NCBI GenBank assembly: GCA_963829525.1
Contig: CAWHIJ010000003.1
Coordinates: 1,472,001 to 1,536,000, forward strand
DNA from: an uncultured Actinomycetota bacterium
GTDB lineage: Bacteria; Actinomycetota; Actinomycetes; JAHEKZ01
Direction: 5' to 3'
Length of the DNA stretch: 64,000 bases
Shown: positions 10,422 to 19,606 of the stretch, in pieces
How positions within the stretch are numbered: the first letter of the stretch is position 1
Layout of the letters: the number at the start of each line of letters is the position of its first letter
Translations under genes and position numbers: made by a program
The notes under the pieces: model-generated
Told to the model about the DNA's origin: nothing
What the model saw: only the letters and a program-made list of their open reading frames with translations
Databases searched by the model: none

Positions 10422-11201
10422 TCAGAGCAGCAGGACGACGAGCGAGACCAGGTAAGTCGTGAATGTCAGTTGCTCGACCGAGCCCAGGATGTCGCCGGTG
10501 ATGCCGCCGAAACGGCGCGAGCAGTGGCGCCGCCAGATCTCGCCTACGGCGAGGGCAACGAGTCCGCTGAAGACGTAAGCGGGTGCATGCTCGGCGTCAA
10601 CTGCGAGTGTGGCCACTGACACTGCCGCAATCGACGCGAGCGCGACGGAGGCGGCGGCTGCAGGGGAGACCGCCTCGCCTGCCTGCGCGCCGAGACCGCG
10701 GGGTGCGGCTGCCGCCACGCCTCGCCGACAGCTCAAGACAATCGCCGTGCGACTGATGACGGTCGCGCTGATGAGCGCAACGGCCCCGTTGCCGATGGGA
10801 GACGCATCCAGCAATGACTCGAGCGCTGCGACCTGAGCAACAAGGACCAGGACCAGAGTCACGACACCGAACGGGCCGATATCTGAACGCTTCATCACCT
10901 CCCGTGCCTGCTCGGGCGGACGTCTGCTGCCGAGCCCGTCCGCGACGTCGGAGAGGCCGTCAAGGTGCAGGCCCCGAGTGAGACAGGCGAGGGCCGCGAC
11001 GGCCGTCACCCCGCCGAGGAGCGGTGAACCGCCGATCTCGATGACGCCGAACGCGCACGCCCAAGCAATGCCGCCCAGTACCAGCCCAACAACTGGTGCC
11101 AGCGCCATCGCTTGACCCCAGGTGTGGCGGTCGACTGAGGTCGGGTGACCCACCGGCAGCACGCTCAAGGTGCCCACCGACAGTCGGACACTGTCGAGCA
11201 C
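10422..11201 (-). CDS. cobS: Cobamide (5'-phosphate) synthase
   Basis: TRGLHLDGLSDVADG, MKRSDIGPFG, FGGITGDILG; multi-TM. Confidence 0.95.
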   Translation of the reverse strand: MLDSVRLSVGTLSVLPVGHPTSVDRHTWGQAMALAPVVGLVLGGIAWACAFGVIEIGGSPLLGGVTAVAALACLTRGLHLDGLSDVADGLGSRRPPEQAREVMKRSDIGPFGVVTLVLVLVAQVAALESLLDASPIGNGAVALISATVISRTAIVLSCRRGVAAAAPRGLGAQAGEAVSPAAAASVALASIAAVSVATLAVDAEHAPAYVFSGLVALAVGEIWRRHCSRRFGGITGDILGSVEQLTFTTYLVSLVVLLL

Positions 11202-11203
11202 CG

Positions 11204-12334
11204 CTATTCCTCGCTGATGGCGGGTGCGGTTTCGGATGCGTCGTCGGAAGCGTCCTCGACTTCGTCGTTGTGTTGGCGGTCGGAGACACCGGCCTCATCG
11301 AACGTCGCCATATCGGTGAGTGTTGCTTGCGCTGCCCGCACGATCGGCAGCGCAAGCAGTGCTCCGGTTCCCTCGCCGAGCCGAAGCTGGTAGTCAAGGA
11401 GGGGTTCGAGCTGAAGACGGGCGAGCACGTACTCGTGGGCCGGCTCCACTGATCGGTGACCGGCCTGCCACCACTTCGCGCAGCGGTAGGCGACTCGGTG
11501 CGCCACCATCGCGCAAGCGCCTGAGACCAGGCCATCCAAGATCACTGGCGTCTTGCGCACAGCAGCCTGCAATAGGAAGCCGGTCATTGCGGCGAAGTCG
11601 GCACCACCGACGGTCGCTAGCAATGCGATCTGGTCGGCCCGGATCGGACGGCCTCGCCGCATCGCGTCACGAACGGCTGCGGCCTTGCGCATCCATACCT
11701 CGTCGTCAATACCGGTTCCGCGACCGGTGACTGCACCGGCATCCCGGGAGGAGAGCAAACCTATGAGCGCGGCGGCGGGTGTGGTGTTGCCGATCCCCAT
11801 GTCGCCGGGGATGAGCAGGTCGGCGCCGGCATCCACCTCCTCGTCGGCGATCGCGACGCCGGCTGCGAACGCTCGCTCAGCCTCCTCGCGCGTGAGGGCG
11901 TCCTCGACGGCGATGTTGCCCGACCCGCGACGCACTTTGTAGCGCGTTATCTCGTCCGGGACGCCGGGGATGTCGGTGGCGACCGCCATGTCGACAACGC
12001 GCACCGTCGCACCTGCCATGCGAGCCAGCGCGTTGACTGCTGCACCGCCCGCCAGGAAGTTCAGCACCATCTGCGCGGTGACCTCTGGTGGGTAGGCCGA
12101 GACACCAGAGGTGGCAACCCCGTGGTCACCGGCGAAGATGACAACGCGGGCACGGTCGAGCCCGCGGGGTGGGCACTGTCCTTGCGTGGCTGCGACCCAG
12201 GTGGACAGCTTTTCCAGGCGTCCAAGGGCTCCCGTTGGCTTTGTCAGCACCAGCTGACGGGCCTCGGCTGCTTTGGCGAACTCGTCGTCGGGACGGGTGA
12301 TCTCATCGCGGAAGCGCTGCAGGTCGACGCTCAC
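11204..12334 (-). CDS. cobT: Nicotinate-nucleotide--dimethylbenzimidazole phosphoribosyltransferase
   Basis: [42 protein letters not shown]. Confidence 0.96.
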
Positions 12335-12371
12335 TACGGGTACCTCTCCTCGAACACCGGTTGTCTGTCTT

Positions 12372-13718
12372 TCATATCTGCACCGGCCGACCCGCGACCA
12401 TGAACACGGCGTCGTCGCTGAGCTCGGCGACAGCCGCGTTGAGTCGACCTTGAGTGTCGCGGAAGAGGCGGCCTGACTGCGTCGCCGGCACGACGCCCTG
12501 CCCCACCTCATTGCTGACGGCGACGACTTGTGCCTTCGTCATCTTCCACGCCTGCAGCAAGTGGTCGATCTGCTTGTCGACGACAGTGAGATCGCCGTCC
12601 CAGGCGCCAGCGTCGTCCATCACCTGCATTAGCCAGAGTGTCAGGCAATCGACGAGTAGGCGCTCGCCACGGTCCGCGTCCAGCAGCGCGGCCGCGACGT
12701 CTCCGGTTTCGATGGTCGTCCAGTGATCTGGTCGACGGGTGCGATGTTCGGCAACCCGGACGTCCCACTCGGGGTCGTCTGGACGGGGCGGTGCGGTGGC
12801 GACGTAGGTGACGTGTTCGGCCGCTGCGAACAAGGACTCGGCGAATCGCGACTTTCCAGACCTCGCGCCGCCGATCACCAACGTTCGATGAGGTACCGCG
12901 AGCCGCGTCGCTGTGGTGGTGCTGCCGGTGCGCAGGATGGCGCCGTCCGGAAGGACGCGTGCTCCCCAGGGCTCTAGGCGCTCACCTAGCCGAATCGGAT
13001 TGTGGTGCGACAGATGCACCGCGACGACGTCACTGGAGTCGTTGACGGCTCCAACGGCTCTGAGTCGACGAAGCTGGTGCGGGAACGTGGCGAGGTCGAG
13101 GTGCTGGGTACCGTGCTCGACAAAGTCTCCGAAGGTCTCTTCGAGGAGTAGCACGTCGAAGGCAGCATTGGTGACGGCCGCAACTGTCTCGTCGGAGAGG
13201 GGACCGGTGTCGGTGGCGTAAAGCAGCCGAGCGCCGTCTGCTGCTGTGACGTCGAAGAGGACCGATTCCCCGATGGTGGCATCGCCGTGCGTGGTGGCCA
13301 GCACGCGAACGGTGTAGCCGTCGCACTGCAGCGAGTCGCCCGCAGCCACCGGGTGCAGAGCAACGGGGTCGCTCGGCCCGATCCAGTCGCGCAGCTGATC
13401 GAGGACGCCCTCCGGTGCGTAGACGTCGAGCTGCTCACGCCTGCCAGCCCAGTGGCGGAAGAGCAGCGCCGCCGGGCCTAGGTGATCTGGGTGGGCGTGG
13501 GTGATGAGCAGTGTTCGAACGCCCGAGAGCTCCGCGCCATGTCGGGTCGCGGCCGCAGGTGCCTCAGGACCGCAGTCGATCAGCAGTCGGTCGTCGATCA
13601 GTGCGCTGGTCTGGCCCCGAAGCACCCCGGAGGTTCGTGCCCAGCCGCAGGAGGCACAGGTGCAGAAGGCGTTCGGCCACCCGTCGGCTGCACCCGTTCC
13701 CAGCAGCTGGATCTTCAC
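12372..13718 (-). CDS. cobU: PhnP-like MBL-fold hydrolase fused to adenosylcobinamide kinase/guanylyltransferase (CobU/CobP)
   Basis: N-half [44 protein letters not shown]-half [38 protein letters not shown] overlap with upstream gene. Confidence 0.92.
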
Positions 13719-18238: not shown

Positions 18239-18239
18239 G

Positions 18240-19331
18240 TCAGCCGGCGAGCGTCCGTGAATCGAGAATGTCGCGCACGGGGTTGGTGGTGCCGACCGAC
18301 CGCGGGTCGCCCTTGGTGGCGTGTGCGGCTAGGACCAGGGCCGCTGCTGCTGCCGGACGGACGCCCTCGACATCGCGAGTGAACACGGGGGCGCTGGTCT
18401 CCAGCGTCACCATCGCGCTGCTGATCTGGACGCTGCCGTAGCCTGCGGCCACCAGCGAGAGAACTGCGTTGGCGGTGCTCCCCAGGTCGGTTCCAGGACC
18501 GAAGTCTCCAGGGATCCCGCCCCCGCCCCCCTTGATCGTCCTACCCAAGTATCCGGCGGCGACGGCGGCGGCGCCCGGCTGCACGCCCGCCTTCGGGCAG
18601 GTAAGCACCGGCAGCTTTGCGCCGACCACTCTTGGCTCGACGGGCAAGGAGGCACCAGCCAGAGCCTGGGTGGCCTGACTGGTGGCGAAGTTGTTCGCCA
18701 CCAGTGGCGTCTCGCGCACGTAGTCCAGCGCGCCACGATCGGTGGCATCTGACGAGCAGCGCAGCTGCACGGAGCGGATGTAGTCGAGCCCGGTGTGGCG
18801 TCGCGCGACCGTTGTTGGATCGATGTTCATGGCGAGCATGGCCTGCACCACAAGACCGGTGGTGTTGGCGTTGGGGCCGAACCCGGCGTTGTACTCCCAA
18901 CCTCCCGACCTGGTCTGCTTGCTGATCAGCCAGTTCATTGCGTTGCGGGCCGCCGCTCGCTCACCGACCGCCCTCAGGGCAATCGTTGCCATGGAGGTGG
19001 CATCGCCGTCTCCGACGCCGCACTTACCGGAGAGGTCGGTGTATGCCGGAAACCGGCCGTTGTCGCACTGCTGGCGCAGCAGCCATTTGACCGAGGAAGC
19101 GGGGACTCTGGCGCCAGCGGTGTCGAGCGCGATGAGCGACAGGCTCTGCCGGTAGACGCCGTCGTTGGTGGGGTCCTGCGCACCGAAGAGGCCAATGGTG
19201 GACTTGTCGTTGGGAGCTGGTGCGAGCCGAGCTGAGTCGGCGGCAGTGGCGCTGGGCACGCTGAGAAGGAGACTGCTCGCGACCGCGGCCGCGATGGTCA
19301 AGCCGACCATCTGGCGGGTGGTGCTGTGCAT
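18240..19331 (-). CDS. Secreted prenyltransferase/squalene-cyclase-repeat (alpha/alpha barrel) protein
   Basis: Signal peptide ending ATA; QW-like repeats WLLRQQCDNGRF, WLISKQTRSGGW; NANTTGLVVQA; first gene after the B12 riboswitch. Confidence 0.8.
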   Translation of the reverse strand: MHSTTRQMVGLTIAAAVASSLLLSVPSATAADSARLAPAPNDKSTIGLFGAQDPTNDGVYRQSLSLIALDTAGARVPASSVKWLLRQQCDNGRFPAYTDLSGKCGVGDGDATSMATIALRAVGERAAARNAMNWLISKQTRSGGWEYNAGFGPNANTTGLVVQAMLAMNIDPTTVARRHTGLDYIRSVQLRCSSDATDRGALDYVRETPLVANNFATSQATQALAGASLPVEPRVVGAKLPVLTCPKAGVQPGAAAVAAGYLGRTIKGGGGGIPGDFGPGTDLGSTANAVLSLVAAGYGSVQISSAMVTLETSAPVFTRDVEGVRPAAAAALVLAAHATKGDPRSVGTTNPVRDILDSRTLAG

Positions 19332-19483
19332 GGAGATGCCTCTCGGGTGAGCGATCCCCGGAGCATTCCCGAACGCCACCGATGTAGACGCCCCTGTGCC
19401 ACCTCACGGTGACGAACAGGGGCGCGGACGGGCGGTGAGCCCGGGCTCCGCCCCGTAGGCCTCGACGGTAAAAGGGAGCCGCT

Positions 19484-19606
19484 CGCCTCTCGTCGGGTAT
19501 TCCGGCTTGCCGCGAACCGCTGAAGGAGCCAAAGCCCCTGGAGCGGACGGCCTACGGTTGCGGGTCAGCGCCGGAATTCGACCGGACTTCCCCCGCCGAC
19601 AGGCGG
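19484..19606 (-). promoter_or_regulatory. Cobalamin (B12) riboswitch
   Basis: Minus strand reads GGGAAGTCCGGTCGAATTCCGGCGCTGACCCGCAACCGT...AAGCCGGAATACCCG, the B12-element core; P1 arms CGCCTGTCGG/CCGACGAGAGGCG; upstream of ECF/cob genes. Confidence 0.92.

Follow-up and report, generated by a model that had tools for sequence, protein, structure and literature searches.

What does a bacterium do with a corrinoid delivered by an importer whose genes are joined to those for nucleotide-loop assembly? The question is raised by a 64,000-nucleotide stretch of DNA from an uncultured Actinomycetota bacterium (contig CAWHIJ010000003.1 of GenBank assembly GCA_963829525.1, positions 1,472,001–1,536,000; hereafter the window), in which a cobalamin riboswitch precedes eight tightly packed genes. 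These encode two extracytoplasmic proteins, an energy-coupling factor (ECF) importer and the loop enzymes CobU, CobT and CobS, with a metallo-β-lactamase (MBL) domain fused to the N-terminus of CobU. The use, sharing and re-tailoring of B12 forms shapes microbial communities, and genome-based predictions of remodelling depend on two markers, CbiZ and CbiR. Our sequence analysis makes it highly probable that this operon combines riboswitch-controlled import with nucleotide-loop assembly. The complete chain that we propose, a B12-repressed operon for corrinoid acquisition in which the MBL domain would cleave the loop of imported cobamides, is a more tentative reading, to which we assign a probability of roughly 0.35.

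The original prediction of a riboswitch followed by eight genes in a given order on one strand is confirmed by Rfam, Pfam and NCBIfam scans and by reading of the gene junctions (Table 1). All features of the operon lie on the minus strand, with the aptamer followed by the genes for an SCO2321-like protein, SCO2322, EcfT, a fused EcfAA′ ATPase, an S component, MBL–CobU, CobT and CobS. The range first proposed for the unit, 10422..19606, spans the genes correctly, but its end coordinate stops 48 bases short of the 5′ end of the aptamer. Junctions of −4 to ~37 bp had been predicted, and this spacing is borne out: SCO2321 and SCO2322 are separated by 1 nt; 4-nt overlaps (ATGA or GTGA) join SCO2322 to EcfT, EcfT to EcfAA′, EcfAA′ to the S component and the S component to MBL–CobU; the distance from MBL–CobU to CobT is 16–37 nt, varying with the CobT start chosen; and CobT and CobS are 2 nt apart. 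Within this series an ATGA links the EcfT stop to the EcfAA′ start, and the S component gene has GTGA overlaps at both ends. Because the gene beyond CobS is convergent, the unit ends at CobS. No promoter-like sites are found inside the unit (0.5 expected) and terminator-like sites show no excess (4 found, 3.5 expected). The arrangement is far beyond chance, since related loci have the genes in the same order and there is covariation in the riboswitch. The idea of a single riboswitch-led, translationally coupled unit containing an ECF importer and CobU/CobT/CobS is thus supported, and the unit is conserved in many Actinomycetota; it is a widespread actinobacterial layout and not singular to this genome.

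Table 1. Features of the operon in the window, in order of transcription. Bit scores are followed by the model's cut-off where one is given.
Feature	Position	Strand	Evidence and remarks
Cobalamin riboswitch aptamer, RF00174	19475..19654	-	Rfam 32.9 bits, gathering score 31.5, E 1.3e-4
Leader / expression platform	19332..19474	-	Between aptamer and first gene
Secreted α/α-toroid protein, SCO2321-like, 379 aa	18240..19379	-	Open reading frame from GTG 19379; likely start ATG 19331
SCO2322-family extracytoplasmic protein, C-terminal membrane anchor	17293..18238	-	NF040672 3.2e-46, 157.3 bits vs 85
EcfT (CbiQ-type T component)	16137..17296	-	C-terminal half PF02361 7.2e-5; frame-shifted
Fused EcfA–EcfA′ ATPase, 535 aa	14533..16140	-	PF00005 twice, 3.5e-57
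ECF S component, 273 aa	13715..14536	-	PF12822 3.8e-10, 40.5 bits vs 30.7
MBL(PhnP-like)–CobU fusion, 448 aa	12372..13718	-	MBL about 13718–12930, CobU about 12890–12372
CobT	11204..12355	-	Start uncertain, 12334–12355; TIGR03160 421.6 bits vs 319.3; NF000996 473 vs 306
CobS	10422..11201	-	PF02654 7e-47, 160.7 bits vs 23.2

Control of the unit by B12 is indicated by the riboswitch. The Rfam match covers the full length of the RF00174 model (positions 1–189), and its score is marginal. A covariance model built from nine of the related riboswitch sequences (R1) scores the window element at 192.9 bits (19465–19646). At the Rfam gathering score, a riboswitch is found in five of seven close loci, where the orthologous elements score 32–40 bits, and none is found in L052 or L015; relaxing the search brings up hits below the threshold in L052, L015 and L006, exactly in front of the operon. 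R1 recovers the element from the window and from 43 loci, in each case just upstream of the operon and on its strand. These are all 43 of the loci that show both the S component and SCO2322; a further ten ECF loci end too early to be judged. The same search finds no riboswitch in any of 27 loci without the ECF genes, and the ECF-less loci L022, L065 and L076 show none even at E up to 1. Of these three, L022 and L076 retain the aldo-keto reductase, MBL–CobU, CobT and CobS genes and L065 retains MBL–CobU–CobS. It appears, therefore, that cobU, cobT and cobS of the window are under B12 control because they are joined to the ECF module.

The covariation supports the riboswitch fold. In an alignment of 43 riboswitch sequences, itself fitted to R1, 88.4% of cells are paired as compared with 27–46% in slid controls; both sides change in 21 of 38 pairs, and none of 500 shuffles reaches the observed values. 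Downstream of the aptamer, the leader has a GAGAGG motif 8 nt before the ATG of the first gene and a predicted fold of −78.3 kcal/mol (z −2.82). Nocardioidaceae loci share a conserved sequence, GTCGAGGyCTACGGGrCGG, directly 3′ of the aptamer. A separate and strong cobalamin riboswitch (95.8 bits) was seen in the Aeromicrobium terrae locus L077 (17335–17545, minus strand), where it lies between cobQ and the gene for a ribonucleotide reductase small subunit and probably provides B12 control of a B12-independent reductase. This locus is also the only one of those related to the window in which cobQ or another ring gene lies nearby, cobQ being within 10 kb.

The importer genes have the composition of a dedicated (group I type) ECF module, with T, two ATPase domains and S encoded together, the T gene being frame-shifted here. 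The best NCBIfam matches of EcfAA′ are to the ECF ATPases TIGR04520 and TIGR04521. That a corrinoid is the substrate is suggested by the riboswitch and by the coupling to CobU. A useful comparison is ECF-CbrT of Lactobacillus delbrueckii, a B12-controlled importer of cobalamin and cobinamide composed of T, A, A′ and a small S component. The two systems would be alike as ECF-type corrinoid importers under B12 control, and they differ in that the window operon itself encodes its dedicated energising module together with two extracytoplasmic proteins and the loop enzymes.

A second comparison points elsewhere. In the accessible part of a study of Lactobacillus sakei (bioRxiv 10.1101/864751), the ECF operon lsa1836–1840 is linked to haem uptake, and its two exported proteins are modelled as the α and β domains of transcobalamin. 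As far as that text describes it, the L. sakei operon shares the five-part layout of the window (α/α-toroid, second exported protein, EcfT, EcfAA′ and S), but it is tied to haem and is without cobU, cobT, cobS or the MBL domain; moreover, the window partner SCO2322 has no sequence link to the transcobalamin β domain. The window importer might then carry something other than a corrinoid, for example haem or a lower-ligand precursor, and its S component indeed has no detectable similarity to CbrT. We consider this very improbable, given that a cobalamin riboswitch heads the operon in 43 of 43 judged loci and that 53 loci show translational coupling between importer and CobU. In the acI/Nanopelagicales, ECF modules that follow cobalamin riboswitches have also been proposed as the B12 importers of auxotrophs (PMC5301498, available in part); relative to what is described there, the accessory proteins, the MBL–CobU fusion and the co-transcription of cobT and cobS are features of the window operon.

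What, then, of the two extracytoplasmic proteins that precede the importer? The first begins with a signal sequence and lacks an anchor at its C-terminus. Its match to NF053823 (1.9e-61, 208.1 bits) is below the 300-bit cut-off and covers profile positions 3–350 of 405, and it is best regarded as a relative of SCO2321 and not an equivalog, with the C-terminal part (the membrane segment) missing. SQHop_cyclase_C is its sole Pfam match (0.0044), and the profile of the SCO2321 family matches the repeats of squalene–hopene cyclase (5.7e-27) and not transcobalamin. Of 62 relatives, SQHop_cyclase_C is found in 55, Prenyltrans in 45 and Cobalamin_bind (PF01122) in 2, and the best PF01122 match (1.3e-5) reaches 24.8 bits against a 25-bit cut-off. 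In several relatives, including P0253, P0346 and P0348, the C-terminal toroid helices stand at the start of the protein, apparently through circular permutation. A candidate Rosetta-stone fusion of SCO2321 to SCO2322 was rejected on this account, the extra N-terminal 140 residues being the circularly permuted toroid and not an SCO2322 domain.

The SCO2322 family is equally distinctive. All 120 SCO2322 homologues among the matches listed carry PF28005, and the domain has invariant Cys and Trp residues. A group of short, Lys-rich homologues (P0225–P0240, about 176 aa) stops at the end of the conserved domain and has neither linker nor membrane anchor, which implies that the SCO2322 domain also exists as a freely secreted protein. 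A literature search on the function of SCO2321–2325 found nothing, most subscription journals lying outside its reach, and the ESM Atlas returned only the family's own PF28005 for the homologue P0234, and nothing once PF28005 was skipped. Extracellular corrinoid capture by the two proteins, as first proposed, is plausible from their location and context, the nearest precedent being the L. sakei operon with its pair of transcobalamin-like proteins, and we give even odds that they bind corrinoid. If they do, this would be a first function for two families that are named but uncharacterised.

We turn now to the fusion that links import to loop assembly. It matches PF12706 (3.3e-20, 73 bits against a cut-off of 27) and PF02283 (7.9e-54). 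Its CobU half scores 169.5 bits against NF004469 (cut-off 161) and matches solved CobU structures at 1e-24 to 4e-25; the GGARSGKS P-loop and the His of the HR..RP motif are invariant among 17 relatives. For the MBL domain, the best solved relative is Escherichia coli PhnP (3g1p; residues 3–259, 4.3e-8, 36 bits), followed by Apyc1 and RNase Z. The alignment with PhnP runs over the whole length and includes the CxCxxC and HxHxDH motifs and the later His/Asp ligands, so that the motif and the catalytic His/Asp are shared; residues H74, H76, D78, H79, H144, D170 and H235/H238 are invariant in 17 MBL sequences. However, the domain scores only 50.9 bits against the PhnP equivalog model TIGR03307 (cut-off 272.25), and no phn genes are found nearby. 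The ligand set thus suggests a PhnP-like metallo-phosphodiesterase that is not PhnP itself. In 62 of 74 loci the MBL domain is more conserved than the CobU half. Where the MBL–CobU proteins among the matches listed have names in the databases, these mention only adenosylcobinamide kinase/guanylyltransferase, and a literature search for the fusion, with most subscription journals beyond its reach, found no paper.

Loop assembly in the Salmonella paradigm is carried out by CobU, CobT, CobS and CobC. By curated models the CobU, CobT and CobS of the window are orthologous to the first three, with CobS falling below the NCBIfam equivalog cut-offs (NF001279 1.6e-51; best 175 bits against 282). The window differs from the paradigm in the N-terminal MBL domain of CobU, in having no CobC in the unit and in the joining of the genes to an importer operon. 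The original prediction that corrin-ring, CbiB, CobC and CbiZ genes would be absent holds for the scanned open reading frames (ORFs) of the 64-kb window, which yield no other cobamide gene at all; neither an AP-endonuclease-2 (CbiR-type) domain nor a CobC-type histidine phosphatase is among their hits. For most of these ORFs the scan used NCBIfam alone, for the others Pfam, and the six stretches that the scans leave uncovered, each ≤1289 nt, are too small to conceal a cobamide gene.

The distribution of the fusion gives a further view of its role. A search for MBL–CobU proteins yields 4190 at E up to 1e-5 among 7999 candidates scored, and both domains are present in 119 of the 120 matches listed. 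A scan of one genome per species gives 380 relatives among 496 pattern matches, from which the best 80 loci were kept, a sample that leans towards relatives of the window; in mapping these loci, families were assigned from explicit coordinates in high-GC loci. The MBL domain is fused to CobU in 77 of the 80. An ECF S component directly precedes the MBL gene in 53, a number that combines a script count of 51 with two loci added by eye (L026 and L034, where the hit overlaps the MBL start). Among these 53, CobT lies between CobU and CobS in 20, and CobU is followed straight by CobS in 30 (the Nocardioidaceae type). A different importer is found in 13 of the 80 loci, from Rhodococcus and Nocardia, in which MBL–CobU is the last gene, with stop/start overlap, after genes for a BtuF-like binding protein, a BtuC-like permease (1.1e-81) and a BtuD-like protein resembling corrinoid ABC ATPases (1.4e-71). 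In all, the MBL domain follows an importer in 66 of 80 loci. Three BtuFCD-linked loci were tested for riboswitches: L072 (operon 6995–11323) has a sub-threshold cobalamin riboswitch candidate (6995–7132, 24.5 bits, E 0.034), and L060 and L064 show no cobalamin riboswitch.

A quick tree of the MBL domain follows taxonomy, with a Mycobacteriales clade containing the BtuFCD-linked and unlinked loci split from the ECF-linked rest (98% SH-aLRT). The importer links should therefore be counted as about two independent associations and not 66. The MBL–CobU of L079, from a record titled Jannaschia sp. (Pseudomonadota), nests among Actinomycetota on a long branch; contamination or mislabelling of the record, or transfer of the gene, could explain this. 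Two further exceptions bear on what the MBL domain belongs to. In A. terrae (L077, 10001–11826; P0512) it is fused to CobT in one 608-aa ORF, with CobU on the opposite strand after CobS, and Mycobacterium sp. 1274756.6 (L070, 103–918) encodes it as a separate protein of 272 aa, which no CobU follows. These cases indicate that the domain is an independent unit tied to the loop enzymes and not to CobU alone.

Taken as a pathway, these components suggest the following model, the first part of which follows from family membership and conservation. When adenosylcobalamin is scarce, the riboswitch very probably permits a single transcript, which encodes a dedicated ECF importer of the group I style (T, fused AA′ and S) and the cytoplasmic enzymes CobU, CobT and CobS. 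Importer and loop enzymes together convert an imported corrinoid, whether cobinamide or an incomplete or foreign cobamide, to the cell's own cobamide. On the outside, the secreted toroid and the anchored SCO2322 domain may pass corrinoid to the S component. On the inside, the MBL domain fused to CobU may act on the nucleotide loop: it would cleave the ribose-3′-O–P phosphodiester of imported cobamides to give cobinamide-phosphate, on which the guanylyltransferase activity of CobU could act directly; CobT and CobS would then add the preferred base.

Cleavage of the loop by the MBL domain is a tentative assignment. We favor it for four reasons: (i) PhnP-type MBL enzymes are phosphodiesterases; (ii) the product would be a substrate for the CobU guanylyltransferase; (iii) CbiR carries out the same reaction in a similar gene context and (iv) in 66 of 80 loci the domain comes after an importer. 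According to the available portion of the relevant paper (PMC7733943), CbiR of Akkermansia muciniphila is metal-dependent and cleaves cobamides to cobinamide-phosphate and an α-riboside, and 25% of cbiR genes adjoin transporters. The window resembles that system in having a metal-dependent hydrolase encoded among cobU, cobT and cobS beside transporters; it differs in that CbiR is an AP-endonuclease-2 TIM barrel and the window domain has an MBL fold with a hypothesised activity. The adenosylcobinamide amidohydrolase CbiZ is likewise described, in the accessible parts of two papers, as a remodelling enzyme often linked to corrinoid importers (PMC7733943, PMC6461909). CbiZ cuts an amide bond and has another fold, and no CbiZ domain is among the hits of the window ORFs. 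The earlier proposal of a route distinct from those of CbiZ and CbiR agrees with the MBL fold, which differs from both. A broader claim is more doubtful still, namely that the domain represents a third class of cobamide-remodelling hydrolase, which would cut the loop of imported non-native cobamides, hand cobinamide-phosphate to the fused CobU and be evolutionarily coupled to ECF and BtuFCD-like importers, so that remodelling would be common in Actinomycetota and missed by surveys for cbiZ and cbiR.

Several observations weigh against the full chain. On the import side, a phmmer search of all PDB chains at E up to 10 links the S component of the window to none of the solved S components, not even to CbrT; S components diverge fast, and the window protein may share the CbrT fold despite the lack of a sequence match. 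Of the 43 loci with enough upstream sequence to tell, 10 have a detectable SCO2321 and 33 lack it. SCO2322 matches no Pfam family beyond its own PF28005 and no solved structure (two profiles against the PDB), and none of 31 members matches the transcobalamin β domain (DUF4430) at E up to 1. If the frame breaks described below are real, the importer is dead in this genome. On the side of the MBL domain, no importer adjoins the gene in 14 of 80 loci (Rhodococcus and the Mycobacterium group), and the fusion to CobT is not obviously explained by loop cleavage. Lineages that carry the fusion include de novo producers, in which a cobamide hydrolase would need tight substrate selectivity. Finally, the operon is without CobC, and the MBL domain may fill that step.

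This last point leads to a scheme of plain salvage, in which the MBL domain would be a non-orthologous replacement for CobC that removes the 5′-phosphate from α-ribazole-5′-phosphate or adenosylcobalamin-5′-phosphate, the importer would bring in cobinamide or cobalamin, the loop would be made by CobU, CobT and CobS, and no lower ligand would be removed. The gene content fits this scheme equally as well as lower-ligand removal: CobU, CobT and CobS are accompanied by exactly one extra hydrolase and by no CobC-type histidine phosphatase. The fusion of the domain to CobU or CobT, and its presence with or without an importer, are what would be expected of a generic member of the loop-assembly pathway, and the archaeal enzyme CobZ is a precedent for replacement of CobC by an unrelated protein. 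The scheme is a serious competitor of loop cleavage, although we rate it somewhat lower. The nearest characterised relatives of the domain (PhnP, Apyc1 and RNase Z) are phosphodiesterases and not monoesterases. In addition, Actinobacteria are reported, in the accessible part of one source (PMC12713380), to have a predicted α-ribazole phosphatase of another type, Rv2228c.

The substrate of the MBL domain might also, though this is unlikely, be a different phosphodiester or pyrophosphate linked to the pathway, such as an α-DAD type dinucleotide, a 2′,3′-cyclic phosphate by-product or cobinamide-GDP, or the domain might be a non-catalytic scaffold. The PhnP family acts on ribose cyclic phosphates, and the CobT fusion of A. 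terrae would suit an enzyme that matures the CobT product. However, CobU and not CobT is the fusion partner in 77 of 80 loci, and the complete set of conserved metal ligands speaks against a function without catalysis.

Whether the importer is functional in this particular genome depends on two frame breaks, which were absent from the original prediction. They were found by three-frame translation and located by alignment to close relatives. In SCO2322, a 1-nt insertion relative to L001 and L004 (an extra G, AGC to AGGC) at about 17393–17394 places the membrane anchor out of frame. In EcfT, a 1-nt deletion relative to L001, L004 and L005 in a G/C run at 16847–16850 leaves the halves of the gene in two frames. 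Two single-base breaks within 550 nt, together with a public gene call that gives only a 232-aa EcfT fragment for this genome, could be read as a sign that the unit is decaying, with import lost and only CobU, CobT and CobS still useful. We consider decay quite improbable. Most likely the breaks are assembly errors, because housekeeping genes of the window are broken as well (at 1380–1990, 35181–36778 and 37693–38773): the yfcH-like gene has three 1-nt insertions relative to L008, trpD is split over two frames and only fragments of qcrC and ctaE can be read. This scatter suggests that the assembly of the window is error-prone, and the EcfT break lies in a homopolymer run. The two halves of each broken operon gene are also still highly similar to those of relatives, in which SCO2322 and EcfT are each intact in a single frame. 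An intact 314-aa SCO2322 from another assembly (P0121) is 100% identical over the body of the protein. Intact EcfT relatives have 383–388 aa, the nearest (386 aa) showing 96% identity. Programmed frameshifting in EcfT was considered and rejected, since the relatives have a single frame.

The consequences differ with the role of the MBL domain. If it cleaves the loop, a new enzyme class would be at hand, many soil and freshwater Actinomycetota would shift from plain users or producers to remodellers, and thousands of actinomycetotal proteins annotated only as 'CobU' would carry a remodelling domain. Should the domain turn out to supply the missing CobC step, it would close a gap in the pathway of Actinobacteria. 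Cultured carriers of the fusion family include Nocardioides iriomotensis, A. terrae and Rhodococcus qingshengii. For comparison, the accessible part of a genome survey (PMC6461909) gives 57% of Actinobacteria as producers with very few precursor salvagers, and CbiZ in 9.1% of species; cobinamide salvage is noted for some Planktophila strains in a source available in part.

The surroundings of the operon are actinobacterial in character, with a GC content for the window of about 0.60–0.68. Flanking genes encode DUF3043, an aldo-keto reductase, gcvT, pepA, lpdA and sucB, with cta/qcr genes and trpD further off, which we take to be the usual actinobacterial neighborhood of cobT–cobS. Divergent from the operon, a 74-aa ORF (19687–19911, plus strand) shares 89% identity with the corresponding ORF of L001 and matches no Pfam family. 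Elsewhere in the window, a riboswitch for cyclic di-AMP (ydaO type; 41619–41783, plus strand, 66.6 bits) lies upstream of a gene for a RipC-like NlpC/P60 cell-wall hydrolase (41988–42863, plus strand), a known kind of pairing in Actinobacteria. A Tad/Flp pilus cluster extends from about 46600 to 58400 and includes genes for a Flp pilin, a T2SSF-type protein, a VWA protein, a TadA ATPase and a CpaB/CpaE-like protein.

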